DNA of 64,000 nucleotides, from NCBI RefSeq assembly GCF_036588685.1, contig NC_086381.1:24304001-24368000 (forward strand). The letters are read 5' to 3'. The stretch comes from Mytilus trossulus (lineage: Eukaryota). Below, piece after piece: positions 4,097 to 37,153 of this stretch. The notes beneath the pieces are model-generated. The model did no database searches. It was not told where the DNA came from and saw only the letters and a list, made by a program, of their open reading frames with translations. Position 1 is the first letter of the stretch, and each line of letters begins with the position of its first letter. The position numbers and the translations under genes are program-made.

Positions 4097-4492
4097 AATA
4101 GACCACTTTCGAGTTCATCCGTCACCGGCAAAAAATCGTCAATTATGCACGCCTTTATGACGTCATTTACCAGATAGAGGGGCTCGCCTGTATCCCTGCA
4201 CTATTTACGTTCATCAAGCGTCTAAGTGATCGTTTTTGTGCAGGATAAACTAGAAATAATGGTTGCTCTGTAGGTACTTACTGACAATTCCCTAATGACA
4301 GCAGTGTTGATTGTCTATTTTCAGAATTCAATTTGCCGAATAATTCGTACAATATAGAATTATAATTTTCCAACCACTCGCTCAACATTGTAAGGAAGTG
4401 ACGACGCCCCTAAACGCACAGATGACGGTGATAAAGGCGCGTATAATTGACGAGTTTTTTCCGGTGACGGATGAACTCGAAAGTGGTCTATT
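4097..4492. mobile_element. MITE, about 395 bp, long TIRs (copy 1)
   Basis: TIR AATAGACCACTTTCGAGTTCATCCGTCACCGG...; near-identical inverted copy at 18093-18488; AT dinucleotide flanks are compatible with ISL2EU/PIF-Harbinger-like elements (inference). Confidence 0.85.
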
Positions 4493-8835: not shown

Positions 8836-9374
8836 TAATTTCATCAACCATCAGACCCTAAATTCACATGAAGAAATATTGGTATATGCGGACTTTTGTT
8901 GGTTGCGTACACAATTGTTATTTGCCAGCTGTTTTCCCTTGTCTGTATACGTACAAACAAGGTCTTGAAGGAAACCTACTGACAATGTACCTCAAAGAAA
9001 ATCGAGAGCAAACCATTTTTACCCTCTTACCAACCAGAGTCTTTGGAAAGTATGATCACTGGTTTAGCAATATGAGAATTCATCCAAACTTGTGTTTGAA
9101 CCATTACACCTGGGATGTGCTGTAAAAACGTGTTTTCACATAGAATAATTTTTACAAGACTGGCATCCTTTGTAGCGACAAACTCCACCCAAAAACTTGT
9201 TTAGATCATCATGAAGAAACCTAAACTTTTTCTTCGGATCATACAATGAGGCGATACATTTTAACGGCGATTCCTGATCTCCCGTTTGAAAACTTATCTG
9301 AAGAGAGTATCACTAGCCCAGTATTCATCACTTCGGCGTTGACCAAAATATCAATTATATTGTCACTTGTATAA

Positions 9375-9960
9375 TTTACCGTCGATGCCTTTGCTGGTGG
9401 ACTGTTAGTCCCCGAGGGTATCACCAGCCCAGTAGCCAGTACTTCGGTACTGGCATGAAAATACGGATGTTTTGTGTTATTAGAATTTGCTGTTACTAAA
9501 TGTTAGAAATTATTATAGATTAGGGATTTATCTCCCTCATGCAAAGCTTTGATTCCTTTCACGGATTTGGCTATACTTTTTGGACCTTTTGGATTATAGC
9601 TCTTCATCTTTTATATAAGCTTTGGATTTCAAATATTTTGGCCACGAGCATCACTGAAGAGACATGTGTTGTCGAAATGCGCATCTGGTGCAGGAAAATT
9701 GGTACCGTTAATGTTATTACCGTTTGTAAAAGTATTTGTTATTCGAAATACTAAGGATTTTCTTATCCCAGGCATAGACTACTTTAGCCGTATTTGGCAC
9801 AACTTTTTTGAATTTTTGTCCTCAATGCTCTTCAACCTTATACTTGTGTAGCTTTCTATATATTTTGATCTGAGCGTCACCGATGAGCAGCTGCCGATGA
9901 GTCTAATGTAGAAGGAACGCGCGTCTGGCGTATTAAATGATAACGCTGGTACCTTTGATA
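9375..9960 (+). mobile_element. Hammerhead-bearing repeat (retrozyme / Penelope-associated non-autonomous repeat)
   Basis: Same family recurs at 13880-14065, 16135-16440, 23035-23590, 26330-26487, 27730-28020, 32739-32792, 35938-36175; carries hammerheads at 9648-9691 and (degenerate) 9874-9931 plus a cUUCGg hairpin at 9435-9454. Confidence 0.75.
9648..9691 (+). ncRNA. Minimal type I hammerhead ribozyme (variant B, intact core)
   Basis: GCAUCA-CUGAAGA-GAC augug uu GUC-GAAA-UGCGCA-UC-UGGUGC: stem I 6 bp, stem II GAC/GUC, palindromic stem III AUGCGCAU, cleavage after AUC (9685). Confidence 0.8.
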
Positions 9961-11711
9961 AATATTGTCATAAATTGGAAGATTCAAAGCATCATTTCCA
10001 CATGATACCATCATCATGGAACAAAGCTGAAGGTATGGGACCAATAGTATATGCCAAGATCCTACGAACATTAGCAAGAACTATAAAGCACGACGAACTG
10101 ATTTTACAGGATATGATATGTGCAACTAAGTCACCTGATTTGCACTTGAGTTTTGGTGTCTTAATCGTATCATCAAAAGTATTGAGAGGGGACTACGACA
10201 TCGGACTTTAGAAGGGGTTACATCCACTCCATGTTTATGTCTGATTAAAAACTCACCTGACATAAAGACAGATTTTATCGTTTCAGACAGATTCAACATA
10301 TCCAATATGTAGGCCGGTGTCCACCTAGCATAGTTCGTCAAGGTAATGAAAAAGTATCGCAACATTGCAGCAATCATTTGCAAATGTATAAAAGCACCAA
10401 CCCAGTCCGTCCAATCTTAAGGTTCTGCAACAATATTTCAACTGCACGAAGAACTATATCCCAAAATGCGAAGGTTGGTAATAGATAGCTTACTAGAGTG
10501 TATTCTGAATTCTTCAAACAATACCTTCAGCGATTTGGGGTGTTTCAGCAAATGAACTGTGACAGTTAAAGAACGCCTTCAATACATTTGGTTGAGAATT
10601 AAACGATTTTTGTCTTTGAATGCTTTTAAATTAAACAAAATAGCCACGATAGTTTGCCTCATATACCAAAGTTAATCCTCGAACACATCTGGTATAAACT
10701 CCTTTACGTTTGAGCAACATCATAAAATCAATTGTCAAATGTTTTTTACAGCATGTTGTTGACCAGCACGTTTTGACATATCTAAACATTGTTTCATAGT
10801 TGAAAATATTATTGCCATGTTGCTGGGCATGGCATCTATAATCGGAGTATAGGCTACAGACGAAATTTCAGATGAAGCCTTTTGTAAGAACCGGTCCAAA
10901 ATGAAACAATTTGTTCAGTGCTTTCTGAAGAAAATGGAATCGAATCTAAGTTTTGCCTCCAAAAAAATACCAAAGACAGGACAGATATATTTCGGTTTTC
11001 CATGAAACAAGACACATTCTTCCCATAAACATTAGAATGAAGAGAAGTTCCATACCGTTCTGATGGCTTGTCGAAAGTTAAACATGCCATAAAATTGGTG
11101 TTCGAATCATTCAAGGTCAAAGAACTTTCTAGTCCCCGTTTGACATTTATGGAACTCATGTGGGCGTTTGATGATTCGTTTTGATACTGACATACAACTG
11201 TAGCCATTGAGTGAAATGCATTTTTACCATCGATTGTTTCAGCATTTAAGTCAATATTTTCTGCTCCCTCTTGTATATTATGACCACCTTTTCTAAATAG
11301 AGCTATCCCATAAGGTACTTAGAATATGTATTGGATTCTGTTTTTAACAAATTTGCTAAACATGTCCGATATCTACGTACTTCACAATAGGATGCACAAA
11401 AACCACGAGAGTTTAAATTTTCAATAAAAAAAAAATAGAGCCAAACTCATGGTGTAATTATAATGCCTAAGCAAGATGAAATGGGGTTAACAGGTTTATG
11501 TTTAAAACAAGTCTGCATTCTGTAATTGCCAGGACTTTTCGCAGTTTGTGTACAGGAAGTTTAGAAACATTTCTAATATTTTTCAATGAACATCAGAATA
11601 ACGAGGAGGTCCAGGTCATATTCATTGAACTATAATGCAAAGCTAAAAATCCTCATTAAAGCTAATTTTTAAGAAATACTGACTTGGAATGGCTTCGAAA
11701 CTTTAAAATTT

Positions 11712-11783: not shown

Positions 11784-12849
11784 AATTATGAAATTATTAA
11801 TGTAATCTAATTTACAAATATTGTAACCACTTCGTAAAAATAATACAGAGTGTGTCTGCTAAACTGAGTGAAAATGGGCAAAATTTAGAAGAAGAAAATT
11901 AAGGAATTCTAGTTTTACATTATGAATAAACAATTAATCTCTGTATAAAATGCAAAATCATATGTGAACAGACCAAAAAAAGTCATAAATTAAATTTTTC
12001 CCCATCTTTTTTCTCTCCATTTTAAATAAAACTGCACCGCATGAGATGTCTACGATCGGGCAAAAAAGTTAGCTTAAGTTATTGGCTTTGCAAAAATATC
12101 ATTTTTAGCCTTCAGGTATGCCGGTCCATTAAAGTCGTAAAATAAGCACCTTTCTCTTGGTCTGTCACTCCACTATCTAGACGTTTATAATTTAATTGCT
12201 GACAAGGTCTGTTCTTTTTATTTTGTTTGAAAACAATTTTATTTTATAAATACTATCTTTCACACGTATACGACTGTTCTTATGGAATTGTACAATTCAA
12301 TAGATTCATATGTAGACTGCCGCTAATTTACAGTATTATTCAATTTCTTTTTTCATTCATTTAGTTGTAAATTGTTTTTAATATTTTGTAAATTGTATTT
12401 TGTAGATTTTGCAGGCTGTTGATCGTACTTTTAGTGAAGAGAATGTAACAACGATTGCTATTTTTTGCGTACAACCTCCCATTATTAATGTTTGTTCACA
12501 TGTGGTTATTATTGTTCGATTGTATTATTAAATGTCTGGGTGCCGCAAATCTATACATCGCATAGAATATTTGTGTTTTGTGTCATTAAGCCTTTTATAA
12601 AAAAAAAATACTTTGGTGAAATAGAACACAAGTGAGAAGGTAATTTTTAGAAATACTGTATAAAATTATTTTTTATGTCATTTGTAAGCGTCAATATAGG
12701 AAAACATCCATGTATTGGTAAGACCGTCTTACGTCAATGAAAAGGATATTTAAGATATTTAAGACTTAGATAACAAAGTTATACACACACATACAATGAT
12801 AGAGATATGCACCACGACTCTGAAAAACATCCAATGTTCTACTGCGTTA

Positions 12850-13720
12850 TCTTAGATAACAATCTCTGCAATTTTGCAGAAACATTAGGACTTTTGAATT
12901 GTCTACGTTTTACAATACTATTCTACATGCTGAATTGAAAGATCGACTTCACCAACAGAGCCTTTTCTATAAATATGGGAATCGTAGATACAAATTTCTT
13001 GTTTTAGGTCATAATAATTCTTATTTTGTGAAGAACCACACTGAAAATACCAGAATACATACTGAGGACGATATTATCAAAATGCTTGACATTTTGATCG
13101 ACAATATATTTGTTGAGTTTGGAGGATTGCTATTTAAGACAGTCGATATTCCAATTGGTACTAATTGTGGACCCCTGCTAGCCGATTTGTTTTTGTATTC
13201 GTATATGAAGCATAGTTCATTCAGAACTTTCAAAAAGGCAAAAAGAAAAAGAAGCTTGCGGAATTCCTTAATTTAACTTATATTGATGATGTCCTATCAC
13301 TGAATAACCCATATTTCAGCCAATACTTGCATCTCATATATCACAGTTCACTTGGAATTGGGGATACTACTGATACTAGAAGGACTGCTTAAACCTTGAT
13401 GGTTTCCTTAATATTAACACAGATGGACGACTGCACACTATAATCTATGACACACGAGACGATTTCAACTTCCTAATTATCTATTTCACATTCTCAGCAG
13501 AAGCATACCATCTGCCCCCTCGTATGGCATTTACATATCTCAGTTGATACGTAATGCTCGTGCATGTTCACACTATACGGGCTTCATATACAGGAGTGTA
13601 CTCCTTACAAAGTTATGAGGAGGAAATATTAAAGATGACACTCCGTTTATTTTATGAACACCATCACGAATTGGTTGATCCATACGATATGTCCTTGTCT
13701 AAACTACATAATGACATTTT
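12850..13720 (+). mobile_element. Degenerate Penelope-like element reverse transcriptase
   Basis: Frameshifted motifs TFELSTFYNTILH, LIDNIFVEFGG, IPIGTNCGPLLADLFLYSY, YIDDVLSLNN, YDTRDDFNF, YGIYISQLIR.ARACS typical of bivalve Penelope-like RTs; followed directly by a hammerhead-family repeat. Confidence 0.8.
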
Positions 13721-14199
13721 TCCGCGTCTTAGATTATGGTTTATTATTCACGCCATCTGGTACCGAACATGACCTATTCCCGAATATGACTATTTTGTTG
13801 TGTGTGAATTCGCCGCATTGTTATAAGCCGTGTCACAACGGTATTTGTTATCCAACATTCATGTATTTAAATACTAAGCATTTGCATATCCCAGGCATAG
13901 ATAACCTTAGCCGTAATTGACACAACTTTTTGGAATTTTTAGTCATCATTGCTGTTTAACTTTATACTTGTTTGGCTTTCTTAATATTTGATCTGAGTGT
14001 CATCGATGAGTCTTAAGTAGATGATTTGTGCGTCTGGCGTATCACATTTTACGCAAGGTATCTTTGAAAACAATTAGCATGTCGAAATGTATTTTTGTAT
14101 TGCTTATTTGTTAGTGTATTTCTCTGTACTGAATGTTCTTGCATTTATTTTCACTGAAGTCTGTCATGTAGTATTGTCATTTTAGTGTTATATTTAACA

Positions 14200-14294
14200 T
14201 TGCAATTAAAGCGCGAGGTTTGAATAGCCACAAAACCAGGTTCAACCCGCCATATTTTCTTAAAATATCCTGTACCAAGTCAGGAAAACGGCAG
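14200..14294 (+). ncRNA. Degenerate twister-like motif (variant with GAGGU/UACC pairing)
   Basis: GAGGT...CAACCCGCC-ATATTTTcttAAAATAT-CCTG-TACCAAGT-CAGG; P3 and P4 intact, P2 imperfect. Confidence 0.5.
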
Positions 14295-15084
14295 TTGTTA
14301 TCTAATAGTTAGTTTCTGTGTGTGATGCATTGTCATTTTTTTTTGGTTCCACTTCAGTGTTTCGTTGTTTTCCTCCCTCTTACAGTTGATGCGTTTCCCT
14401 TAGTTTTATTTGTAACCCAGATTTGTTTTCTCTCAATCGATTAATGACTTTCGAACATTGGTATACCACTGTTGCCTTTATCTAATGTAAATAAACTGAT
14501 CATAGATACAAGGATTAAATATTCATTGGTGAACAAAATCTTCATTCAAATCGTACACCTTCACATTCGTTAACTGCATTGCCATGAATTATATAGAATG
14601 TACCTCCAAAACGAACAATAACAATTTCACAGGTATCGTATCGTTATTTTAATATTTCCTTAAGTTCTTATTATTATATTAAAAATATCAAATGCGAAAT
14701 TGCTACATTATATGCGATGCAATCCTTAATGTGAAGCTATTATTTTGATCTATAAAATAAAAATATACATGATATAAAAAAAAAGATATGGTATGCTTGC
14801 CAATGAGACAACTGTCGGACCAAAATGACACAGACATTAACAACTATATGATGCATGTTTTACTACAAAAGGGGTAGAATTTTAACTTTATTGAAACTAT
14901 ACAAATAAAAGAAAATGGTGCATTTTTCTTCGTTTGTCGTTATAATCTGGTATTATATCATATTCAGCAATCTGTACTTAATTTGACTTTTACAATACAT
15001 TTCGCGTCTATATTTCCAACTTTGAATGTACATATAACCAAACTATAGCAGAAATATGATATGATTTCTGGTGTTCATTCATTT

Positions 15085-15834
15085 TTACCATTTGAAATTA
15101 TCCTCCTCAGCATCGAAAGATACGGATAGATTTTTCTTTAGGTTGAGCGGGCGAGGTCTTGCATTACTGAGTGAAGAGTAATCTGGTGGAGGAGAGTCCT
15201 TTTCTTGTGGTCTCCATTTTGGTTGAATTATTGGCAACATTGAAGACAGTTTACACCTTTTCAGAAATGACATATCAGTTTCCTCTTGTGAATCTTCCTT
15301 TTCCACATCTCCAAAATTGTTTATTTTTTTAAAAGGATGAAAATTATCTTCCCTGAGCAAATATGTTTTAATTTGGTACTCCTGTAACTTCTTGTCCATG
15401 TAACTATCATTTTTAGAACTGAAAGTATCATGTACAGGGCGATTTAAGTCATACGGTGACGATTTATATTCTTTATAATCATATTCACGAATAGAATTCT
15501 CTGGTCCACCAATTGGAATTAGTTCTACATTTGTGTTTCTTCTGGGTTGTTTAATGGATTTCATTTCTTCGTGTTGATCTCTAGTTATGTAATTTGGCTT
15601 ATATTCTTTATACTTATGTTCATGAAAATTGTCATAAGAACGATGTTTTTCGTATAATTCATGAACTTTTTCGTATTCATGAACTCTATTATATTCTTGT
15701 ATATTTTTATTCACACGCAAATGTCCATTAAATGTAAAAATTTCGTATTCTGATAACCTTCTAGCAACATTGTCAAATATTTGTTGTTCCGGACCAACCG
15801 GATATTGAGCTATTCTAGGTCCTTTTCTCTCCAT
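15085..15834 (-). CDS. Uncharacterised low-complexity protein, paralog 1 (about 249 aa from first ATG; may be a terminal exon)
   Basis: 759-bp open frame in AT-rich DNA; shares FxPFKK and DMxFLKxxKLSSMLPIIQPKW with the 21166-21633 ORF; TTATTTGCAG acceptor-like site just upstream of the ATG. Confidence 0.7.
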   Translation of the reverse strand: MERKGPRIAQYPVGPEQQIFDNVARRLSEYEIFTFNGHLRVNKNIQEYNRVHEYEKVHELYEKHRSYDNFHEHKYKEYKPNYITRDQHEEMKSIKQPRRNTNVELIPIGGPENSIREYDYKEYKSSPYDLNRPVHDTFSSKNDSYMDKKLQEYQIKTYLLREDNFHPFKKINNFGDVEKEDSQEETDMSFLKRCKLSSMLPIIQPKWRPQEKDSPPPDYSSLSNARPRPLNLKKNLSVSFDAEEDNFKW

Positions 15835-16153
15835 TTCCTGCAAATAATATTTTGAGATAAAGTAACATCTTCTTGTGGTAACATTTTACAGTAAGTAACA
15901 TTCATTTTTTTCTTTAAGGGTGTGGGTTATTGCGAAAACATGAAGAAGACTTATAGGAATTGGGACGACTGAGAAAACATGAAGAAGACTGATAAACAAC
16001 ATCTGATAGTTCAATCTACTTTTTTGATGTTCTGTTATTACATTATTAGTCCAAAATTTCCCCATAATCGATTATTTTTAAGCGATCTCTACGATCTCGT
16101 CTGAGGTTGCATCACGTTATAAGTCAAACAGCAAATAGTTATCAAAGATACCG

Positions 16154-18092: not shown

Positions 18093-18488
18093 AATAGACC
18101 ATTTTCGAGTTCATCCGTCACCGGAAAAAACTCGTCAATTATACGCGCCTTTATCACCGTCATTTGTGCGTTTAGGGGCGTCGTCACTTCCTTCCAATGT
18201 TAAGCGAGTGGTTGGAAAACTATAATTCTATATTGTACGAATTATTCGGCAAATTGAATTCTCAAAATTGACAATCAACACTGCTGTCATTAGGGAATTG
18301 TCAGTAAGTACCTACAGAGCAACCATTATTTCTAGTTTATCCTGCACAAAGACGATCACTAAGACGCTTGATGAACGTAAATAGTGCAGGGATACAGGCG
18401 AGCCCCTCTATCTGGTAAATGACGTCATAAAGGCGTGCATAATTGACGAGTTTTTGCCGGTGACGGATGAACTCGAAAGTGGTCTATT
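18093..18488. mobile_element. MITE, about 395 bp (copy 2, inverted relative to 4097-4492)
   Basis: Same TIRs and internal sequence as copy 1 in reverse orientation. Confidence 0.85.
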
Positions 18489-19722: not shown

Positions 19723-20508
19723 TTAAAATGTTGATCTTTTCAATGAATAAATATAGCTACTAATAAGAAGATCTATAGAATGAAAAGGATCTTCCAAAAT
19801 AGATTGCCTTTGTGAGTTTGCTCTCGTCACTTTATGATTATATTCCTTAGACGGACGATTACGTGGTGAAAATGATGATGTCTTTGGTTTCAGATCAAAT
19901 CTTGTCTGCTTTACAACCGGTAAAATTAAACGCGGTTTTGTTATCCTACTTATAAACACATCACTAGAATTCAAACTTGCTCGACGTTTCTGAGATCGCT
20001 TCGTAGGAGGTAACGGGTCCTTGGATTTAGTATGCATCACAACTGGTAGAACTACGGGAAGCGCGGGCTCGAGCACTGGCATTGTTTTATCAGTCGTTCT
20101 AATTGAAACTTTATCATCTGTCTTTCTAACCGAAACTTTATCATCGGTCTTTCTAATCGAATCTTTATCGGCCGTCTTTCTAATCGAATCTTTATCGTCT
20201 GTCTTTTTAACAGAAACTTTATCATCTGTTTGCTTTTGGGGGGATTTAGGCTTCTCCTGATTCTTGATTGAGGGCGTTTTAGTTGTTTTTTTCTTAGTTT
20301 CGCTGTCATTTTGTTTATTATTGCCGAATAAGTCATTATTTCCCTCAAACAGGTCGTTTTTTTTAAATGGATCGAAATTTTGCTTGTTTAGTTTATAAGA
20401 TTTCGGTCTTTCATATTCACGTGTCTTCTGTTGTATTGGATCTTCTAATTGAACGTCTAATGCATTGCGGTAAGAACTTAGATTATAAGGTTTAGGTTTA
20501 TATTCCAT
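19723..20508 (-). CDS. Uncharacterised Lys-rich low-complexity protein, paralog 2 (261 aa)
   Basis: Intronless 786-bp ORF; N-terminus aligns with the 21166-21633 ORF (NLSS...EDP...K.REY.RPK.Y...FDPFKK.DLFE); internal 9-aa repeat KTDDKVSIR. Confidence 0.7.
   Translation of the reverse strand: MEYKPKPYNLSSYRNALDVQLEDPIQQKTREYERPKSYKLNKQNFDPFKKNDLFEGNNDLFGNNKQNDSETKKKTTKTPSIKNQEKPKSPQKQTDDKVSVKKTDDKDSIRKTADKDSIRKTDDKVSVRKTDDKVSIRTTDKTMPVLEPALPVVLPVVMHTKSKDPLPPTKRSQKRRASLNSSDVFISRITKPRLILPVVKQTRFDLKPKTSSFSPRNRPSKEYNHKVTRANSQRQSILEDPFHSIDLLISSYIYSLKRSTF
20090..20230 (-). repeat. Coding 27-bp tandem repeat (KTDDKxSxR x5)
   Basis: In-frame repeat inside paralog 2. Confidence 0.8.
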
Positions 20509-21165
20509 GACGAACTTTATATGTCCATAATAAATAAAAGCAAACTTATTATTCCATCTTAATCTTTCTTTATCAAACAGTCATAATAAGTCTTGTTGAA
20601 ACAAATAGTATAATATTTCCTGAATTATTATCCAAAAATTCGCAAACTTTTCTACGATTTGCTACAAACTGTATCTAAATAAGTTCTTAACGTAATATGT
20701 TAGTTGATACTAAATCGCCTTGCATTAATATTCGATAAATATTTTTTTACAAAAAATGCATACGTGCGTTTCAAGTCTTGCAATCAGTTTAAAAATCGTA
20801 AACGCTCGCTAAATGTATGACGTTTAAAAGCATGTCATATCGATTAGGGAACTAATTATAGTCGTTCTTTCTGTGTTATTGTATTGTTATTGAGTTACTT
20901 GATTCGTCTTTTGAAAGGTGATCCCCACAATCTGAGTTTGTTTACGTTAGGTACGGTCAGGAACTGTAGGTGGCATGTTATTCCTGACCATACAAAACAA
21001 AATTAAAAAGTGATCTTCAAATTTGACTTTGTTTACGTTAGGTACGGTCAGGAACTGTGGTATGATCAGAAACTGCAGATGGTATGCTATTCCTGACAAA
21101 ACAAGTAAAAGAATTCGCGATAAGCTCACATAGCATTACAATTCAGTTTCAATTTACTGTTCACA

Positions 21166-21633
21166 TTAGGGATGTTGTATCCATTTTGGTTGAATAATTG
21201 GCAACATGGATGATAGTTTGTAGTTTTTCAGAAATTCCATGTCATCATCTTCATCATCTTCATCATTTTCTATGTCATTTGGCTTTTCATATTGTTCTTG
21301 CATTTCTAGGGGTGTCTGTTGCTTCTCTGGCATCTTCGGAGGATGTTTTGGTTCTTCTTGTTCTTGTATGGGCGAGTTTGTTGATTTGTGTTCCCTTTGT
21401 TTCTGTATAGTCATGGTTGTTTTATCTTCACGTTCATTCTCTGAACTGCTTTCATATTTTGGTTGCGTTTCCTCAAACAAATCTACCTTTTTAAAGGGAT
21501 CAAAAGCTTGGCTGGTGCTTGCATAAGGTTTTGGTCTTTTGTATTCCCGAGGTTTGTGTTCAAAAGGATCTTCTACTTTTCTATTAAATGTTTCTTCAAC
21601 AGAACTCAGATTTAATTCAGGTTTATCCTCCAT
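21166..21633 (-). CDS. Uncharacterised acidic low-complexity protein, paralog 3 (155 aa)
   Basis: Intronless ORF with both family motifs: EDPFEHKPREYKRPKPY...FDPFKKVDLFEE and DDMEFLKNYKLSSMLPIIQPKW. Confidence 0.7.
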   Translation of the reverse strand: MEDKPELNLSSVEETFNRKVEDPFEHKPREYKRPKPYASTSQAFDPFKKVDLFEETQPKYESSSENEREDKTTMTIQKQREHKSTNSPIQEQEEPKHPPKMPEKQQTPLEMQEQYEKPNDIENDEDDEDDDMEFLKNYKLSSMLPIIQPKWIQHP

Positions 21634-23034
21634 AATGTCTGTGGAGACTCGGTTACAAGATATTTAGTGGTAGTTTCTTTTTACTTTAAACGGATTGTCA
21701 ATATAATTGATATAATAGTAACTTCATGTGATAATCCTAATATCATTTCATTTCTCGAATAAAACTCATGAATACGTTGCTTGAAATTTCAAACGTTATT
21801 TGGAATGGTCGCACAGTCTCTGTTCCTAATAGTTCGAATAATTCTTTTTTTTCTGATTCCAAATCCAAAATGTTAGTTTGTTTTCATGTTGTTAGTAGAC
21901 AATTAATGATTTTTTTATAAACTATCCCGCACTTTATTCGTTAAATATTTATTTTCAGACTTCAACGGATTCACCTGATAAGTATCATATTTTCAAGTGC
22001 ATACTAAGCGGTAATCTATAAAATCTTCCTTTGTTTTATTGTGATATTAATAGTCCCTCTAAGGTCAAGTAACAATATATGGGTCATGTCACAGGATTTT
22101 CTACACAACTGTGGATTGGTAAATTTGACATAAAGATTAAGAAATAATAAAATACCATAGTTTTTTTTTTTTATTATTTTCTAAAATATTATTGAATGTA
22201 TTATTTTTGAAATAGATAAATAAGTATATGAAACATTATTAAAAGACGGTGTCAAAAATATTTTTTTGTTTCATGATAATGCATATTGTATATGGGTTGT
22301 GTTGAAAAAATAGGGGAAAATGACACAGAGGTCAGTGATATATTATGTAGAGTAATATATCACTGACAGCTGTGGATAGTTAACGTTGAATTGATAGTAA
22401 ATAGCAAATACAAGTTATTTGTAGTATACTAATGTTCTTATGATACAGAAAAACGTGATAATAATTAAAACTGAGAGAAGACAAAAAAAAAAAGATTTTG
22501 GAAAAAATGCGAAGGCAGCACAAATCTGTCCTGTCCCCTAGTACCTTTGTTTCATAATAATAAACATTATAAAAGTGAATGCCTTTTATATGAATTTGGT
22601 TAAAAAGAGGGGGGAATGCAACAGTTGAAAAATTCACCCATCTGTAGGTTTAAAATTATTTTGTTATCTTAAAAATATTTCTTATTCAAATATTTTTTTC
22701 CCAGTATTAAAACATTTCTTCCTTCTTTTTAAGGGTGTGCGTGGGGGAGATTATGAGAAACAAATCCCATGTAGACAAAATTGTATTTACTATTTCTGCC
22801 TATACATACATTCTTGCAAGCGATGATAATAGAATGTGTCTACGCAAAAAAAAAATAACTGAATTCTTCTTCGATAAAAATGCGATGAACGCAGCATATT
22901 TTATATGAAGCGCTTTCAACACTAATAACATACAAAACAACTCTTAAAGTTACATTTGTATGCTGCGGCCATGAGATTGAAAGTTATTTATAGTTTGGTT
23001 TGGTTTCTTATTCCTCGTTGTGTTAATTTATAAA

Positions 23035-23590
23035 AGGTACCAGTCTTAATACGCCAGATGCACGTTTCGTCTACATAAACTCACCAGTGACGCTCATATC
23101 AAAATAGTTAGAAAGCCAAGCAATTACATAGTTGAAGAGCATTGAGGACCAAACATTTCTAAAAAGTTGTGCGAAATACGGTAAATAAACTCATTATAGA
23201 TACCAAGTTTTGCCAAATACAGCTAAGGTAAGCTATGCCTTAGGTAGAAAAGCCTTAGTATTTCAAAAAATTCTAAAATTTGTAAACAGTTAATATATAA
23301 ATATAACCATATCAATGATAGTTCATGTCAGCACCAAAAGCGCTGACTACTGGGCTTGTGATATCATCGGGGAAATAAATCTCCACCAGCAGTGGCATCG
23401 ATCCAGTGGTTGTAACTCATCATATATATCATGACTAAATTTTGTAATACGCCAGACGCGCGACGTATGCCTAGTATTAGAAAATCCTTTGTATTTCGAA
23501 TAGTTCATATACTTTTTCAAACAGTTGAATTATAAATTGATCATATTATTGATATTCATGTCAACACCGAAGTGCTGACTACTGGGTTTG
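23035..23590 (-). mobile_element. Tandem hammerhead-bearing repeat (about 1.4 units)
   Basis: Mutated hammerhead at 23051-23093 (CUGGUGA), hammerhead 3' remnant at 23449-23462, two copies of the hairpin motif (23325-23348, 23558-23580). Confidence 0.7.
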
Positions 23591-26409
23591 GGTCATAATA
23601 ATTTTATTGGAAAATAAAATCTAATGTTGTGTCTCGCGATTGTTAATTTTGATTTTGGTATATAGAGTGGAGCGTCTTGTTTTGTGAGGATGTTTGGTCA
23701 ATCATCTTTTGAAAATTATCATATTCAGAGTGTATTTGGAATGCTCGACGAAGTTTTACTATTGTACACTGAGTTTATTATTAATGAACATCTGTTATGT
23801 TCCGAATTTTCATAAATATAACTAACTAACAGTAACTGGCCGATTTATAATATTTTAATTCATTTTATTCTATGCAGTTTGCTGCTGAAAAGAGATTATA
23901 CAAGTTGAAATTGTATGGCTAATTTTACTAACTGCTGTAACAAATTGCACAAAATTTACTCAAACTATATTTAGTTATTTTGTTTTTAATACATTGTTAA
24001 ATCTAATATACTGTATTTGTCTTTTTGTTTTCTATAGAATATTTTTTTCTAAATATTGATATTTAAGGGGAGATAATAGCGTGTATTTAAACAGCACTAA
24101 AGTAAAATTCTTTAAGAAATCAAACTAAACTAAACGTTTCTCATCATAATAAAATAATTAAGAAACCCATTTAAGTGTATATATATGTTGTGACATCATT
24201 TTATCCAAAATATGATTTGTACAAAAAAAATCGTACACGTTATATTTTGTTTCATACAAATTGTAATATGTACAAAATTCACTTATAATTAGTACAGAAA
24301 ATTATCGTATGGATTTTATCATACAAAAAGCATTGCAACTATAGAATTTTTATTCAATGACCACTTAATAAACATTATCGCTATTTTGTGCATTTTTCCT
24401 TTGATCTTTTTTTGTGATAATTTTCATATCATGCTTCTGGCTTGAGATGGAAAAATTATCGCTAGAAACTAAGGAGGCCACGTGGCGTTGCTAACGAAAT
24501 TGACTTTGAAATTGACAACGTCGTCATAGGTAAAATAGCGATAAGCAGATTATCATTGGTCATCTCAACTCGATTGCTTTTCTCACTTTCGCTGTACCAG
24601 CTGAAGCGAGAAAATCAATGTCGTTGAGATAATCAACGATAATCTATAATTATTTACAAAACACAAAAAATATATACATGATACATGCATTCATGCCAGT
24701 ATATATTCCGAGAGTGATAGTACAACAGAAATTGGCCCCATGCAGTGATAATTCTGATGTTATAATGTAAAATGACCTGGATAACAATTCTGATAGTATA
24801 AAAGACTTAATTGGCCCCAGTGATTATTCTAATATTATAATAGAAATCGAACCAAGTGACAATTAGAATTACACTGACGTTGAAACGCCAATCATACGTG
24901 CCAGGAACCGTGCGCTGTCTTGCCAACTGATCTTAGCCGAATATCTAACGAAGGAAACGATAATGTCATTATACCAATTCCTAAGTATGATATTGCCCCA
25001 ATTGATCAACGAAATATTTTATGTGTAACTATTAGAATGTGGGTACCGCGTTGGAATATAGCTGTAGGAATTTTTAACAGGATATTTTATAGAATGTAGC
25101 TGTTAAAGATTCATTTTCATTCGCAGCTTCGGTTTCTGAGGTTCAACTTTCTCTACGTGAAGCAGATAAAAAGTTTTTAAACATTGGTGATCAACGATTT
25201 ATTTCATGTAAATGACAAGAGGAAGCATTGAGTACAATTCTCGATGCCATATGTAATTCAACAAGTGAACATACTCAAACAAATGATGCAGCACTATTCG
25301 TGTATTTTGTAAATAATGGTTATTGGGTGATAATTAAATACAAATTATACAGTTTGTATCAATGTTGTTTTACAACAAAATCCATATTGTAAACTATCGT
25401 ATAAGTTATAAGTGAATTTTTAAAAAAATTGTACTAATTCTTATTTTCTCACTAGGAAGATATATAATGAAATTAATCTAAAAAGAAGTCTATGAGATTG
25501 TGTGCCCAGTTAGTAAACTCACGAGAGTATGGATTGGAAGTGTTTACGTGAATGCATCTCGTTCGCTGATTCTTTCGAGACTACTGAACTGAACTGAACT
25601 TATATTAAATTGACCGTTCCAGCTCAGAAAATTGTGAATTACATTGTTTTTTCTTCTATATTGAACTACCGTTAAACGGACATCATGACGTTTAGAATAT
25701 CAAAGATTCATTACATATAATCCACGCGAGGAACATGTTCAAAAAAGTTCCTTCAAAGAATAAAGGCACATTCAATAATCCGACAAGAGAGCCAGGAAAA
25801 GCAACAATAAGTAAACATAGAATCAAACAGAAAGACGACATTCCAGCAAAAGTACCTCCAAGAAGAATATCTCCTTTAAAAATGTTGAGAGATTGAGGAT
25901 GAATTTAAGAAGAACGTATTGACAAGTCCAATATACCCTTAACGTCAGCCTTTGTGTTTGTGCAAAATAAAGATCATTTGTGGCGGCTATGTGTTGATAA
26001 CAGGACATTTTAATGATAAGACGATCAAAGATGTGTATTCGATACCTAGACTAGAGTACACACTGAGTGGATCTTAGTGAATTTTAGTTTTGATCCTGAG
26101 TATGGCTAATCACGAGATGCCTATGAATCTAGCAGCGTCCGAAAAGATTGCGATTTCTACAGCCAGATGTGGTTTATAGATAAAGGAAGATGTGGTGTGA
26201 GCGCCAATGAGACAATTCTCCATCCAAATAACAATTTATTAAAGTAAACCATTATAGGGCAATGTACGGCCTTCAACACGGAGCTCACAACAAACAACAA
26301 GCTATAAAGGGTCCTAAAATTACTATTGTAACACAACTTTTTTGGAATTTTGGATCCTCAATGCTCTTCAACTTTGTACTTATTTGGCTTTATAACTATT
26401 TTGATATGA

Positions 26410-26453
26410 GCGTCACTGATAAGTCTTATGTAGACGAAACGCGCGTCTGGCGT
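26410..26453 (+). ncRNA. Minimal hammerhead (variant A) with core mutation G8A
   Basis: GCGUCA-CUGAUAA-GUCuuauguaGAC-GAAA-CGCGCG-UC-UGGCGU; perfect stems but CUGAUAA instead of CUGAUGA. Confidence 0.65.
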
Positions 26454-26590
26454 ACTAAATTATAATCCTGGTACCTTTGATAACTAAAGTTAAACATTTC
26501 AAACGGCAAAACCAACGGTCTAATCTATATAAAAAAGAGAAACGAGAAACACGTATAAATTACATAAACAAACGAAAACCACTGTTTATC

Positions 26591-27480: not shown

Positions 27481-27943
27481 TCATTTAAAATCTTCTACCG
27501 TAGGATTATGTGTATAACAATTCAAAAGATATAAGTGATTTGAATAAACACCGTTCTGACACAAGCGATCGCATCTATTGTATTGATCAACCGTGCAAAT
27601 GTCGAAGTTTACAAATTGATAGTTAATAACGAAAACGCACACGTGGAATTGAATTCTGGAGATTTTTTTGGAAAAGTAATGGACTGAACAGGTAACATGA
27701 TGTGGAAAAGGTATAATCGAAAGCAAACTTTGCCTGAGGGAGTTAAAACTATAGTTTCATAATTATTTCAAAATTTATTAACGGACAATCTTAGTAAAGT
27801 TTGTTAAATTGTGTCAGTACCGAAGCACTGACTACTGAGCTGATGATACATTAGGGGGCTGATAGTCCACCAGCAGAGGTATATACCCAGTGATGTAAAA
27901 AAAAAAAAAAAATAGGAAAACAACACGTTTTTGATAATTTATT

Positions 27944-27985
27944 GCGTCCGAAGCGCTTTTCTGGATTTACCTTCATCTGGAACGC
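27944..27985 (-). ncRNA. Minimal hammerhead (variant C) with core mutation
   Basis: Minus: GCGUUC-CAGAUGA-AGGuaaauCCA-GAAA-AGCGCU-UC-GGACGC; half copy with intact CUGAUGA at 28506-28526. Confidence 0.6.
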
Positions 27986-30900
27986 TCAAAGCCAAAATTA
28001 TGAAATCCGAAGTACCGAAAAGAATAATTCACATGAGATAATATCATAGAATATATATAATCATATAAAATATCACAACATAAAACAATTTGTTATTGTT
28101 ATTGTTATTATTTATTAGTTGGTTTAATTCTTTTAAAGTTGCATATCTTATATAAGAAAATTAAGAAGAGGAAAAGAGAATAGCTGGACTACACGTCCAT
28201 TGTGAATATTATTGAGAGTAACGTTACACAACATAGTACGTATTAGCAGTACGGAAGCATAGACGACAATTTGATTTTGACTAGTAATAGGGAAAAAATA
28301 AAATCACAAAAATACTGAAAAATTCAAAAAAGGAAAGTCCCAAATCTAATTGTAAAATAAATCAACAGCATAAACACATCAAACGAAATGATAACATCTA
28401 TCATCCTCTTGACTTGGTACAGACATTTTCTTAGGAAATGGAAGTAAATTTTAGAGTAAATTTAACACAGATCTATCTGATTTGTGTAAGTGACAAAACA
28501 TAATTTTACCTTCATCAGGTACGCTCGAGACCATTGATTACTCGGAAAAAATCAGTGATGAGACACATTTAATGAATTAATGTTGAGGTATTATAGTTGT
28601 CAATAACCTTTGAATATTTCCTTTTCGAATAAAGTTCAATAATTATTATTAAAAATATATATATCATATTGCATTTTAACTTGATTAATTGTTGGGTTAG
28701 GAACAACAATTTTCCTCATACAGAAAAAAATCTTTTTTTCTTAATTGAGTCAATATCAGGGGAGAAAACTCTGTCACATTATGTATTTCGATATATAACC
28801 ATATATACATATCATCTGGGATTATTCATCAATATATTATGTCTCAGATATCATATGTATATAGTGTTACATTGAGAGATGTATAATGTCTACAAACATG
28901 TTATTCATAATTTAATAACGAGAGGCCTATCAAGATCTATCAAGTCTCACGCATTTTCATGATTATTTGACTGTATTTTGCTTTGATCTATTGTTTTATT
29001 TTCTCTTTGATCCTTACAATTTTGTCAAATCTCACACATTTGAAAAGCTCTGTAAGTGGCGGTACCGAAGAAGTGACACATTAATTACTTTTAATTAATA
29101 ATAGATTACTTTGATAAACAAACAAATCAATCCAGCTGGAGCTAAACTTATAATTCCTATAATGTTTTCAATATTTTCCGTGTGACAAATATTATGAATA
29201 TTGATTTTTATACTTCCATGGTTTATTTTCCTTCACGTTTTCTTTGTTCTAACATTATTTCGCCTAGAAGCACGATTCGAAGAATTTACTAGAAAAGTAC
29301 TGCCATTAGTAAGAATTTTGTTTATAAAGTTTTGCAAAAATGTGTTTGTTTTTATATTGGGAGAGTTTTTTTGTGTTCACAATAACATTTTATTTATTTT
29401 ATCATAACACTAAGTCAGTCACCTTAGCAAAGATTCTTCATGTTTACATGATAGCACGGGTTTTTTTCTGCAGATCTTGAAAGAACATTATATAAATATT
29501 AGTTATGAAAGAGTTTTATTTTCTTGTTGTTGTTGTATACTAGTATATGATTAAAAGACAATGTATGCTGCAGAGGCTTTGATGTGTTTTCAAAGGGATT
29601 TATGAAATTTTGTATTTTGTTAGACTAAATAACACTTTGGTGCACTATTCTTGGCGAGCATAATGTAGGTTATAGTTCTTGTTCACACTTTATTAAGAAA
29701 AGGGTCAAAATTGATAGATTAATTTTACTGATATATCGTCTGAGAAAGAAGAAGAACTTATTTGATAATAAGCGATATTACAGAATATTTACTAAAAAAT
29801 AATTAAACACACACTTTTTTATTTTAGAAAAAAAACCATGAATATTCTAAAAGCACCTATGGATGAATCGTGTTTAAAAATGATTAAAGACTGTTTCTTT
29901 ACAAAAATAATCTAAGACTTTAAGATTACAAGGGTCTAACAAGATTATCATAACGTAATAGCAAATATGGCCGTGTACGACTTATTAAAAGTTATATGTA
30001 TCAAATAGTTCGTTTGTATGTTTGTTGGTATTCTTTTTTGTCGCACTACAGTGTTCCTCGCCTGTTGTTCCTTTGTTTGCCTCTTAAAGTTCTCCTACTT
30101 TTATTTTGTTTTCTCTCAATTGATTTATGAATTTTGAACACCGGTATACTAATGTTGCCTATCTTAATTTGTATAGAGATTAAGCTGAATCATAACCAAA
30201 CTGGTTACTTATAAAGCCGACATTTACTGAGTTGAATGGAATGTTAGAAGTTATAGCAGTTATACGTTGTGTTAGGTTGGGGATGCTGGGAATCGTCTCT
30301 CATAAGTATTTAATTAAAAAAGATGTCGTCAGATGTCTACAAGCTTTTATGGTATGATGAAGGTGGCTATGAAGTGTGGATAATAATTTGTTTTTGAACG
30401 ATACAAAATGTAACAATTTCCTTATTTGGCCATTAATGTCAGGATAGAGATCCCTGAATGGTTGAATATATCTTAAACACATTCACATATAAATGCTGAC
30501 CTAACTCGACATTGTTTGCCTATATAAAAGCTGTACTAAGCTTGGAATGATACGTCTCACCATGTCGACAAAGATTCAATTGGACAAGTGCTTGACAAAA
30601 GCTTCTTTATAAACAAAATTATATGCCCTAGTAAAAATGTTGGTCCAATGTATCATGTTTAACTTTGAATGTCTTCCCATAGTACCATAGAAAATTGTAA
30701 AAGAAAAAATCTACCTGAATTGAATTGAGATAAATCTCGGTATTTGCATTTTAAGGAGTCAAGAGATATCAGTATAGAAATTCCATTGTAACAGTGCAGA
30801 AAATCCTATAGAAGAAGATTCCAATGAAAAACATCGTTCAAATTAAACATTTGAAAAAAGAAATACAAGTGTTAAATTTAATGGATCTTGTAAAAGCCAA

Positions 30901-32628: not shown

Positions 32629-32980
32629 ATACCATGAACAAGTAAAAAGTGAAACTCATCCTCTTATAGTTGATGCGTTTCCCCCAGTTTTGGTTTGTGG
32701 CTAAGAATTTTTGATTTATGACTTATGAACACCGATATAACGCGCGTCTGGCGTATAAACAAAATTTGTCCTGGTATCTATGATGAGTTTATATACTACT
32801 GTTGCCTTTACATAACCATGGCAAAACCGATAGTTACAGATATCAGCTATTGAGTTCCATATTTGTGGTAATTCCAATGTAAAAGTTTTCTACGGTTTTG
32901 TCAAGATGATGCCAATGTAAAACTTGTATTCAAATCATAGGACATGTGTATAAAGAAACACAAGTGTGTAATGTTATGTA

Positions 32981-33348: not shown

Positions 33349-36300
33349 ATGAAATTGATTTTATTTTTCACGGCAACATTTGTGTCGGCTTCTCTGGCTG
33401 TAGTTGATCTAAATGGTCAATGGAATCGGTGGAAAACTGACTTTGACAAATATTACAGTACTTCAGAAGATGAAGCTAACAAGCGTGCCGTGTGGGAGAT
33501 GAACCTGGAATATGTTAATGCACACAACAATGATGTACAATCAGAATTCAGATTGGCAATGAACGAATTTGCTGACCAGGTGGGTTTTTATGTTATTGTA
33601 TTTAAAATGTGAACCGTACATAGACGTAACCATAACCCCAAAACGACTTCCTCTGATAGTAATATTCATAAATTGTCTTCGTTGGGGGACAACATAGCAT
33701 TTTTAATTGTCATCTTTAGAACTAAAGAACTAAACTCCGGACACTATTAACAAAAAAATATCAGCAAATATTGATCTTCAAATGAGATTACTAGTATATA
33801 TAATTAAAACGCATATTGGCATTGATATAGTGATGATTAACTTGTTGGTGACATTTGAATTTAGATGTGTCGGGAGGGGGGCTTTGAAACTCCAAAAATT
33901 ATACTGAATCTATTGGTAAGCTACATAAATTTTAAAATTTTAATTGAGAAAAAAAAATCAAATTGTAAGTGAATGATCGAGTCTCTATTTCAAAAGTCAA
34001 AAAGAAGATGTACTTAGTATTTCATATTCTTCGCTTATTAGTTCAATTTCTTCAAGATTGGAACCTGTTAATTTTCAATTATGACGATTGCACATTATTG
34101 TGTATAAAAACGCGTTCCGGCGTTCTTTTGTTACTATCTTGGGTCAGTTGTTGGCGGTGGTTGCTGTCTGTCATGATGTTCAAGTTTTCGTTTGTTATTT
34201 TGGCATAGGTCGCACTGATGTTTTTTCTTCTTTTCTTCTTTTCACATTGGGTCTACTCGTATGTGGGTCCTTTATAGCTCACTATACGGTATGTGTTTTG
34301 TTGAATGTTGATTAGCGTGCCGTGTAATGCATACAAATCAGGAGACGCTTATCCCGTTCCCGGTCTTCTTTCCATGTAGAGTTCATGTGATTCCTTTAGT
34401 TTTAGTTTGTGTTTTTTTTTTTACCTTCTTCTTTTCTCTTCGACAGATTTCCGAAAACCTATCACTCATCGTGAGAAAAGAAATATGCTTTAATTTGATC
34501 TCCATTAAACAACTGTCCACTAATTTTATAAACAAAGCCAGTCGGATCATTTGGTGTCAGCATGACGAGTCTAATTATCTCATTGGGAATCACATCACAT
34601 ATTCTTTTTTATATGTCATAAATACTTGATTTATCATTACAGGAATCACCAAAACGTCCACATATTAAAACTGATTCTGAAAGAGAGTATGAAGAGATTG
34701 AACACAATTGGACTTATTTACCGTCTACTTTTGATTGGAGAACAAAAGGTGCAATAGGTCCTGTGCAAAATCAAGGACAGCTGGGACAAGTACTTTCAGT
34801 TGCAGCTATAGGTGATATTCTTGAAAAATTCACGCTACTATCTATATTCTATATCAATATCACTGTGTGCTTCTTAAAATCTAGTGCATTTTAAATTTGA
34901 TTTGTTATGATTTGATTTGACATTTTTAAAAACAAGTGAAAAGTGTTAAGTGCAATTGAATAGGGGTCAATATAGATGGAATGCATCTTTAAAACATTTT
35001 AAAATCTAAATCTACAACTTGATTTGAAGAAAAATCCCAAAACAACTCTACGCTTAACATTTTTATTCTATATCCATATCAATGTGTGCTACTTAACATC
35101 TAGTTCACTTTAAAAAAAAGTTTGGTTTCTCTTAAGTGTGAGTTGTTTTGGGGATTTTTCTTCAAATCAAGTTGCGTGATTTTGCGTTTAATAGATGTGT
35201 TATGTAAGATGTCTTTAAACAAGAAGTATTTTTTTCTCATCCTACTTTTTTTTATTTATTTCAAAAAGCTCAGACAAAGTATTTATATTCAGGGGAGCTG
35301 AAGATTTAGATTTTAAAATGTTTAAAAGATGCATTCCATCTATATATTAACCCCTATTCAATTGTACTTAACACTTTTTCACTTGTTTTTAAAAATGTCA
35401 AATCAAATCAAATCAAATTTAAAATGCACTAGATTTTAAGTAGCACACAGTGATATGAATATAGAATAAAAATGTCAGTATGAAACCTGAAAAAAAAGTA
35501 TTCACTAATGTAACAATAGCCTGTGTGCAATTGATACGATATAATTCACCAAATGTTATAGAACTGAACATGACGAAGAATTAAACTGTTTTTTTTTTCT
35601 TTTTTAACACAGAAATTATGGAAAGCTATGAATTTATAAAAAGTAGACGTTCGATTCCATTAAGCTTGCAAGAAGTGGTGGACTGCTGTACTCATGGGTC
35701 TGAGTTGGTGACACCAGTGTTTAACTGTATACATAATATAGGTGGTCTGTGTTCAATGGCAGATTATCCAACGCATGGTCCAGCTGGACAGTGCAGAAAC
35801 ACAAGCTGTACGTCCGTTGTACGGGTATGTTATTCCCTATCATGTATACTAGTTTTCAATAGTTCAAACAATTCATAAGTTTTGCATTTTTTTTTTAAAT
35901 AGTATAAATAAGAGACAAGAATTTCTTTCATTGCTTATAAACTCGTCATAGATACCAGGACTAAATTTTGTATATACGACAGACGCGCGTTTCGTCTACA
36001 AAAAACTCATCAGTGACGCTCGAATCCAAAAAAGTTAAAAGAGGCCAAATAAAGTACGAAGTTGAAGAGCATTGAGGACCAAAGTTCCTAAAAGTTTTGC
36101 CAAATCCAGCTTAGGTAATATATGCCTGAGGAAGAAAATCCTTAGTATTTCAAAAAATCAAAATTTTGTAAACAGTTGTGCAAGCCACGTTTTACTACAA
36201 TGTTAAGATATCAATAAACATCATAGATGTTTGCTAATTCTAAAATAAAAACTTTATAAATTTACTTAGTTAAAAAATATAAAGTTTGTCTTGGAACTTC

Positions 36301-37153
36301 TTTACATAACTGTTTTTTTTTTCGATTTCAGAATATGGGCACAATGGCGGTTGCAGAAGGAAACGAAGACCAATTACAGATAGCCGTGTTACACTTTCCA
36401 GTAATGGCAGTTATTGATGCTAGTCTTCAGTCATTTCAGTTGTATCGATCTGGGGTCTACGATGAACCAAAGTGCAGTTCAACAAAACTTGATCATGCGG
36501 TTCAGATCGTCGGATATGGTTCTGAAGGTGGAAAAGATTATTGGATCGTCAAAAATAGCTGGGGTATGTTTTTTGTAGGCCTGGATAAGGCTTACAGATT
36601 ACAGAATGTTGGGTCATGAACACAAAATTAAATGGGATAAGAAACAAATAGAGAAAAGAAGGTCTGCAAATAGATAACAGAGAACTACGGAATACAAGAA
36701 ATTATAAAGAAAATGCATGAATGGTCATTTATAAAATAAATGTAGGATCCCTTTCTAGAGGCTCATATTTATAATAATTATCAAAGGCACCAGGATTATA
36801 ATTTAGTAAGCAAGTGCATCAAACGGATGTCGATATTTGTATATTCTGACTATTTACATAAAGAATCTTATAAAATTATTTCATGTAACTGATGTCTCAC
36901 GCTATTCCGGTAAAATTTACAATATCATATCAACACTGATTTTTTTTTAAGAAAAGACCCTGAATTTTATTTCAATTGTCATTCTCTTTTAAAAAATCGA
37001 AACACAGCAGTGATGTAAAGCAGCAAAATAGTGAAACAGAGAATAATTTTGTATGTTTTAGGTGTAAACTGGGGAATGCAAGGTTACATACTAATGAGAA
37101 GAAATAAGAATAACCAATGTGGTATTGCCTCTGATGCCACCTATCCTGTATAA
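33349..37153 (+). CDS. Cathepsin L-like papain-family (C1A) protein, catalytic Cys replaced by Val (probable pseudoprotease), 311 aa
   Basis: Exons 33349-33579, 34643-34811, 35613-35824, 36332-36563, 37062-37153; all GT-AG, phases 0,1,0,1 consistent. Signal peptide, I29 propeptide (ERFNIN-like E-R-W-N-V-N, AMNEFAD), [32 protein letters not shown]. Confidence 0.92.
34843..35468. repeat. Long nested inverted repeat (foldback) in intron 2 of the cathepsin-like gene
   Basis: 34843-35012 is the reverse complement of about 35302-35468; inner arms 35015-35057 / 35131-35173. Confidence 0.8.
35976..36019 (-). ncRNA. Minimal type I hammerhead (variant A, intact core), antisense in cathepsin intron 3
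   Basis: Minus: GCGUCA-CUGAUGA-GUUUUUUGUAGAC-GAAA-CGCGCG-UC-UGUCGU. Confidence 0.7.

Follow-up and report, generated by a model that had tools for sequence, protein, structure and literature searches.

The window analysed here, a 64-kb stretch of Mytilus trossulus DNA, contains exactly four matches to a covariance model that was built from nine families and describes a motif predicted to be a nested, bulged RNA hairpin of about 60 nt followed by a small hairpin, P4. They coincide with the four copies listed in the original prediction, and the sequences quoted there are present. The copy at 9381..9457 (+; model match 9370-9464; 69 bits) belongs to repeat family A and consists of P1 (9384-9389/9417-9422), the bulged core with the P3 hairpin (9390-9416), an orphan 3' arm of the closing helix P0 (9427-9433), P4 (9435-9454) and an AUG (9455-9457). 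A 5' truncation has removed its first 6 nt and with them the ACUGG arm; the enclosing ACUGG helix that had been proposed is borne out for the motif but is missing from this copy. A somewhat decayed family B motif (23322..23410, -; model 23317-23415; 77 bits) lies within a retrozyme insertion at about 23026-23462. A partial copy, reduced to the 3' arm of P0 and P4 (23550..23590, -; model 23550-23601; 19.9 bits), lies where truncation has cut off the 5' part of a family C fragment (23466-23586), and a decayed family D copy (27811..27893, -; model 27803-27899; 68.7 bits) lies 3' of a family D hammerhead in the insertion 27717-28012. BLAST revealed in addition a decayed family C fragment (9303..9380, +; 79%) with the 3' half of the motif and P4, which the covariance model missed at E ≤ 1.

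The first copy opens a one-unit family A retrozyme insertion (9381..9720, +), which matches the L030 monomer at 94% and stops 3-5 nt before the expected start of the next motif. Its type I hammerhead (9648..9691, +; CUGAAGA...GAAA core; predicted cut after 9685) was read from the sequence and aligns with the hammerheads of families B and C, the latter of which scores as RF00163 with 33.3 bits at a gathering threshold of 34; an Rfam search of the window returned three weak type I hammerheads. As had been noticed, every motif copy is on the strand of the neighbouring hammerheads, since both are parts of one repeat unit of ~350 bp. Seven of the 14 fragments in the window end 1-7 nt before the motif position. 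Family C 3' fragments with such ends are found at 9746..9966 (+; degenerate hammerhead; end 5 nt short), at 26339..26486 (+; hammerhead-bearing, without the motif; 7 nt) and, as a tail only, at 36773..36814 (-; 5 nt). Family B contributes a 3' tail at 32739..32792 (+; 7 nt) and a hammerhead-bearing 3' fragment at 35931..36176 (-; 1 nt). A broken, 5'-truncated copy of an autonomous Naiad element of family N1 (12816..14484, +; reverse transcriptase (RT) region and 3' UTR; 77-81% to L131) ends 5 nt 5' of where the motif sits in tandem copies.

The window has further features of its own. Exon-like frames with FG-rich repeats lie at 48031-48435 and 49299-49790 (-); their Nup50-like look presumably indicates a nucleoporin gene. 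The frame at 36260-36619 (+), with LDHAV... and YWIVKNSWG, resembles the C-terminal part of a papain-family cysteine protease and is likely a cathepsin exon. Two copies of a 396-bp MITE-like element with ~70-bp terminal inverted repeats (4097-4492 and 18093-18488) are 97% identical and oppositely oriented. Three related low-complexity frames (15085-15885, 19723-20580 and 21166-21663, -), sharing the words 'SSMLPIIQPKW' or 'FDPFKK', are possibly repeated exons of one gene, and two adjoining satellite arrays with periods of ~135/261 bp and 162 bp occupy 45053-46213.

The predicted core fold consists of P0 (7 bp, 5 in the B2 copy), a 1x4 loop, P1 (6 bp) and a variable apical hairpin P3, with P4 standing separately; between P1 and P3, bulges of 1, 2 and 1 nt on the 5' strand lie within CU/AG, UGG/CCG and GGA/UCC pairs. 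Single-sequence folding gave the same core for representatives of families A-E, N1 and N2, and near variants for N3, N4 and N9. Folding z-scores were -3.0 to -5.0 for intact copies and only -1.8 for the decayed window copies at 23320 and 27808. Pairs were counted on an alignment of ten families (five retrozyme and five Naiad families, one copy each); the Naiad L251 and the class II hairpins described below were folded singly and left out of the counts because MAFFT misaligned them. On this alignment RNAalifold returned the nested structure unprompted, 98.7% of 230 cells were paired, and 9 of 23 pairs showed double changes. Slid pairings gave 36-50% paired cells, and 0 of 500 shuffles reached the observed level, a control that overstates significance since the ten families are related. 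Compensatory pairs occur in three helices. The pair counts and the controls indicate that the structure is under selection. The compensation originally described for the 8-bp hairpin, our P4, is evident in five repeat families (40/40 cells paired, double changes in 2/8 pairs), the GAUGCC/GGUAUC helix (P1) has double changes in 4/6 pairs, and the alignment supports both P0 and the inner GGAC/GUCC helix (P3). Core letters are invariant in 10/10 families; the eight inner pairs (CU/AG, UGG/CCG, GGA/UCC) never vary across them, and it is therefore folding energy, not covariation, that supports these pairs.

Other parts of the original prediction did not survive the comparison. The UUCG loop of P4 varies: in family B it is replaced by a run of U, and in Naiads by other loops on stems of 2-5 bp. 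The GCUGGU/ACCAGC helix, proposed to cross P1 as a pseudoknot, has double changes in 0/6 pairs and leaves 10/60 cells unpaired, and folding gives the nested hairpin instead. The suggested likeness to the P1/P2/P3 topology of HDV-like ribozymes fails with it, as the crossing helix lacks the covariation that the prediction itself had named as its test. HDV-like ribozymes have P1.1, P4 and J4/2 with the catalytic C between the 3' strands of P1 and P2; in our alignment there are 0 nt between these strands, that is, none of the three elements is present there, and no HDV-like Rfam family has a match at the motif. The statement that the motif belongs to no known class stands: no Rfam family matched it in the window (E ≤ 1) or at six other loci (E ≤ 5). 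HDV-like, twister, pistol and SECIS readings were rejected on account of topology, the known features of these classes and the absence of an Rfam match. Nor was GGUCGAUGCC accepted as a Pol III B box, as the word differs in N1, N4 and N9 and the units are full of T runs. Exoribonuclease-resistant RNAs form a pseudoknotted ring around their 5' strand; the present fold is nested and has no Rfam match. Telomerase RNA has a template-pseudoknot core and a short reiterated template; the motif has no supported pseudoknot, and an ordinary copy extends over kilobases or spans entire units.

The repeat units that carry the motif are 351-362 bp long and arranged head to tail, and in each of them a single type I hammerhead lies ~40-50 nt upstream of the motif. 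The motif's core pattern has 11,754 exact matches in the 1.3-Gb genome, and the reversed control has 0. The units fit the published non-LTR retrozymes of mussels, described as tandem repeats of 350-390 bp that contain a type I hammerhead, are strongly transcribed and occur abundantly as circles, with most of their RNA in full-length circles; Penelope-like elements (PLEs) were proposed as their mobiliser on the basis of shared hammerheads (PMC7229834). The units found here are tandem, fall within 170-400 bp, carry a type I hammerhead and are transcribed on the hammerhead strand. Public reads show heavy transcription of the retrozymes, with the motif strand outnumbering the opposite strand ~4-6:1 in two stranded runs of an organism (organism A) that may not be the species of the window. 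In a check for circles, head-to-tail unit joints were found in RNA and DNA alike. Four retrozyme families (A-D) occur in this genome, and a fifth (E, L191) comes from metagenome contigs. Families A-D share 76-87% identity in the first 90 columns, which hold the motif, and 52-57% in the remainder in five of six pairs (80% for B-C). The AUG after the motif is retained in families A-E and opens an ORF of only 2-17 codons.

Retrozyme copy ends were mapped at 130 loci using matches of ≥84% identity, with ends at locus edges and duplicate flanks dropped. Of 95 distinct 3' ends, 76 fell in the 13-nt window before the motif, all of them within 7 nt (A 23/26, B 25/39, C 7/8, D 21/22), after UAUU or a U run; the 5' ends were scattered, 7/94 lying in the same window. 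The remaining 19 3' ends were scattered and mostly from the older family B, and several of them we read as interruptions or deletions. Naiad 3' ends were found within 12 nt of P0 in 19/25 (N1), 20/26 (N2), 24/26 (N5), 19/27 (N6) and 19/27 (N7) cases, the N6 and N7 counts overlapping through shared matches, with modes at -5 to -7 relative to P0. Public contigs and reads have loose ends 4-6 nt (family C) and 4-7 nt (N2) before the motif. Across A-D the copy end lies at a constant 4-7 nt from the helix and at ~33-46 nt from the predicted hammerhead cut, a spread that rules out the hammerhead as the ruler. Judged from these distances, the motif would set the position of copy ends, although closeness by itself does not establish causation.

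Should the motif mark the point at which copying of an autonomous partner begins, it would be expected directly behind the 3' end of that partner in tandem copies, and this is what was found. Intact relatives of the 12816-14484 element are Naiads with an N-terminal GIY-YIG domain and CxC and DKA motifs, and their DCSC/DCTC, ADKA and CX9CxxC words agree with those in the available text of PMC8557442, where the Naiad zinc finger is described as lengthened in mussels. The GIY-YIG domain of N1 is detected by Pfam at residues 58-146; Pfam returned no RT match, and the RT was assigned by motifs such as YIDD. In these elements the motif fills the 5' UTR, between the end of the upstream unit and the start codon. 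At the N1 tandem junction the unit end is followed by the motif, whose P0 and P1 helices contain compensatory changes; the ORF begins in frame at the AUG behind P4. The N2 junction is built likewise, with a 995-aa ORF starting at the AUG after the motif (L169:1406-4393). The in-frame AUG stands directly or a few nucleotides after P4 in N1, N2, N4 and L251. Partial Naiad tandems with a pseudo-LTR were also found; N1 has only a degenerate hammerhead core (CUGGUGA..GACAAG). The motif is absent from the N1 3' UTR. A decayed, partly duplicated retrozyme-like segment does occur there (window 13866-14075, +; L131:5968-6515), with the degenerate hammerhead core ~520 nt before the element end, and is likely a captured passenger. 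The N2 3' UTR (L169:1095-1180) has a GC-rich, hairpin-rich stretch, GGGUGCC...GCACCU and then a second hairpin, ~150-230 nt before the element end.

Further class I families are N3 (L200) and N4 (L214) from metagenome contigs and N9 (L284) from this genome, for which the list of Naiad families is incomplete. L251, a Naiad found by protein search alone (53% identical), has the motif, which scores 42 bits with a model built without this sequence; its contig is filed under a bacterial genome record and is likely host DNA in the assembly. The distant Naiads N5-N7 carry in the same place a related class II hairpin (UGCYGUGUGGA..UCCCCG), and a pattern joining the 3'-end word to the class II core gave 49 matches (control 0). 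The class I covariance model did not detect class II hairpins; their position, core words and fold, with modest z-scores of -1.6 to -2.7, suggest that the two classes are related. In N5 and N6 the ORF begins hundreds of nucleotides downstream, and the motif is still at the copy end. Both are young families with in-frame stops at zinc-finger cysteine positions and after DKA (N5, L227:5145-8519; N6, L239, L245, L246 and L250), which are TGA in N5 where read. By their sequences they appear to be selenoprotein-type Naiads, as reported from clams and spiders (PMC8557442). Viral contigs gave 0 matches by pattern and 0 by protein. Of 32 metagenome pattern matches, 10 were GC-rich and look like chance, and none of the 8 of these that were scored fit the model. 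The homologues may all come from mussels; the searches reached no other animal group.

The motif is also kept in hammerhead-less mini-repeats, which stop at the same site as other copies: a class II tandem of 254 bp (L235-L237) and a 148-bp N1 tandem (L278:1300-1800), each made up of the motif, a little downstream sequence and a Naiad 3' tail. In two independent families, 11 head-to-tail motif-only copies (78 and 77 bp) precede a Naiad ORF (L282:1550-2450, -, and L283:1540-2420), and the unit borders are the copy-end site and P4/AUG, joined by short microhomology. These arrays look like the result of jumping between two flanks brought together by the hairpin; variants shared among the L282 copies imply that part of the expansion took place at the DNA level. 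A seemingly fixed boundary 645 nt upstream proved to be an artefact of a truncated reference and vanished on re-mapping.

From these results, a hypothesis regarding the function of the motif may be put forward. The sequences themselves show the fold, its position after the 3' end of the upstream unit and before the start codon of the Naiad ORF, and the accumulation of insertion 3' ends at a U-rich (UAUU/UUUU) site directly 5' of it; the hairpin probably tells the Naiad RT where to start copying, and retrozymes would borrow this signal. The Naiad protein would bind the invariant bulged core, its GIY-YIG domain would nick AT-rich DNA, and the nick would prime copying at the U-rich site, 4-7 nt upstream of the hairpin and in the direction away from it. 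Since copying would move away from the hairpin, the proposal accounts for its being missing at the 3' end of every ordinary insertion. For the hairpin itself to be copied, the enzyme would have to make a second pass over a template that is circular or tandem, or jump to the RNA 3' end, and pseudo-LTRs and retrozyme arrays could arise in this way. Retrozymes would then be parasites that pair the start signal with a hammerhead to make circles. The template would have to be continuous at the start site, for which circles, tandems or an end-to-end jump would all suffice; motif-bearing rows continue past the site by 8 to >1,400 nt in 34/38 (N2) and 12/12 (N1) cases, some of them duplicates, and 1 of the 50 starts there. 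Among the three functions guessed originally, an RT-recognition element is the best-supported reading, and a new ribozyme and a nuclease-blocking fold fare poorly. It is also conceivable, though we would put it forward only tentatively, that the hairpin is a portable template-positioning module similar to telomerase RNA, which alone would make the TERT-related Naiad enzyme copy anything 5' of it on circular or tandem RNA; an enzyme cycling around the hairpin would explain the two loci with 11 motif-only copies.

Other functions were weighed against a copying start signal. The hairpin might mainly be a cap-independent translation-start element of the Naiad ORF, inherited by retrozymes, with ends set by the upstream tail and the nick. 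Its filling of the 5' UTR, with the AUG in frame at or just past P4 in N1, N2, N4 and L251, the in-frame or decayed AUG after it in most class I families and the persistence of this AUG in retrozyme families A-E would suit such a role. Retrozymes, however, have a mere 2-17 codons after the AUG and yet keep the motif better than the hammerhead region, and the ORF of N5 and N6 is hundreds of nucleotides away from a motif that still lies at the copy end, so that translation is unlikely to be the main function; a dual role in translation and copy start may exist. An internal promoter, acting as DNA or nascent RNA at the boundary of pseudo-LTR and body, with the closeness to copy ends a matter of element layout, has precedent in Penelope and Chlamys-3, whose internal promoter lies in the 5' UTR at this boundary (PMC8557442). 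Heavy retrozyme transcription and the invariance of the core agree with a promoter, but compensatory pairs in three helices require a single strand, and the fixed 4-7-nt spacing to ends in nine families would be left unexplained. A further point against it is that in four runs N2 junction RNA reads were ~100-fold fewer downstream of the motif than upstream, with loose ends at -7 to -4; these reads stem mostly from genomic fragments within host transcripts and are silent on the Naiad start site. We consider a promoter improbable.

The sharpness of copy ends could also be produced by a new ribozyme cleaving its own RNA 4-7 nt upstream of the motif, which would leave an RNA 3' end where copying begins and replace the hammerhead that Naiads lack. 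Canonical hammerheads are described as absent from Naiads in the available text of PMC8557442, and the borders of the motif-only units in L282 and L283 are at the copy-end site, as if derived from an RNA end. On the other hand, the site is in a variable linker and not in the conserved core, the fold has no supported pseudoknot, nearly all N1 and N2 rows run through the site, and full-length circles are the form in which most mussel retrozyme RNA is reported (PMC7229834). The RNA ends listed for family C showed no pile-up, a weak test as none was seen at the hammerhead either. Taken together, these observations make such a ribozyme highly unlikely. Finally, the pseudoknot might form as a working or alternative conformer, such as a nuclease-blocking knot or a switch. 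Full complementarity is kept in families A, C and N1 and 50/60 cells are able to pair, and since the 5' strand of the crossing helix is invariant, even a genuine helix would show no covariation. Against it are the lack of any double change, mismatches in B, E, N2, N3, N4 and N9 and the absence of a counterpart in class II, and we give this conformer hardly any chance of being right.

With the start-signal reading, the motif points to Naiads, a clade without hammerheads, as the likely mobiliser of retrozymes in this genome. Which enzyme mobilises animal retrozyme circles, and how an endless template is recognised and primed (PMC7229834), would become testable questions, as would the RNA feature behind the internal start of a Penelope-like RT (PMC11167929). 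A 60-nt fold with an invariant core is a target for mutation and could explain pseudo-LTRs. Telomerase RT is closely related to the PLE enzymes (PMC8557442), and a docking fold 3' of the template therefore bears on the origin of telomerase-style RNA use. If the hairpin were a portable module, the clade would gain its first defined RNA partner fold, and the hairpin could serve as a tag for writing circular RNAs into genomes.

Among known RNAs, telomerase copies a template 5' of a folded RNA core and hepadnaviral epsilon is a bulged hairpin; both dock the RT and fix its start. They are analogies only: the motif has neither the pseudoknot nor the short repeated template of telomerase RNA, and copying starts outside its stem, presumably from a DNA primer, whereas epsilon is protein-primed. 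With HDV-like ribozymes, whose L3 loop resembles the UCCCCG word, the motif shares this word and a helix starting at G, but it has no supported crossing helix and no J4/2 catalytic C, and the copies end ~15 nt upstream of that G.

Among transposable elements, the closest parallel is the Poseidon element PAc of Anolis carolinensis, also a Penelope-like element, whose RT starts inside the RNA at +111-118 and requires RNA to +172, that is, ~55-60 nt 3' of the start, and whose endonuclease prefers ATT; hammerhead cleavage is not required, and genomic ends lie at the start sites (PMC11167929). The geometry here is similar: genomic 3' ends likewise lie at an internal site of the RNA, the element lying 3' of it. 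In contrast, the PAc region is inside the ORF, with no conserved fold defined and the start in an AC-rich stem-loop (PMC11167929), whereas the present element is a hairpin with covariation that lies in the 5' UTR of Naiads, a different clade, has a U-rich start and is shared with non-coding parasites; inspected by eye, the PAc template as printed has neither core word. The retrozymes of PMC7229834 are of our carrier type; its main text, as available, names no second motif and no mobilising family and does not use the word 'pseudoknot', although the folds predicted in its Fig. 3D and Supplementary Figs S4-S6 may depict these hairpins. That work points to PLEs sharing hammerheads, while the link found here is to Naiads, without hammerheads. 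The Naiads of PMC8557442 agree with ours in the N-terminal GIY-YIG, CxC and DKA, the C-terminal RT, partial tandems, 5' truncation and selenocysteine variants; in the available text 'hairpin' occurs 0 times, the sole 'pseudoknot' refers to a frameshift, and neither a 5'-UTR structure nor a retrozyme partner is given. The accessible part of the preprint 10.64898/2026.07.22.740005 contains 'Mytilus', 'stem-loop' and 'initiation' 0 times. Searches of a literature set that covered few subscription papers turned up neither the hairpin fold nor the Naiad-retrozyme link. Compared with these systems, the carriers and the principle of an internal start were already known, and the structured RNA fold and the link between Naiads and retrozymes appear to be new.
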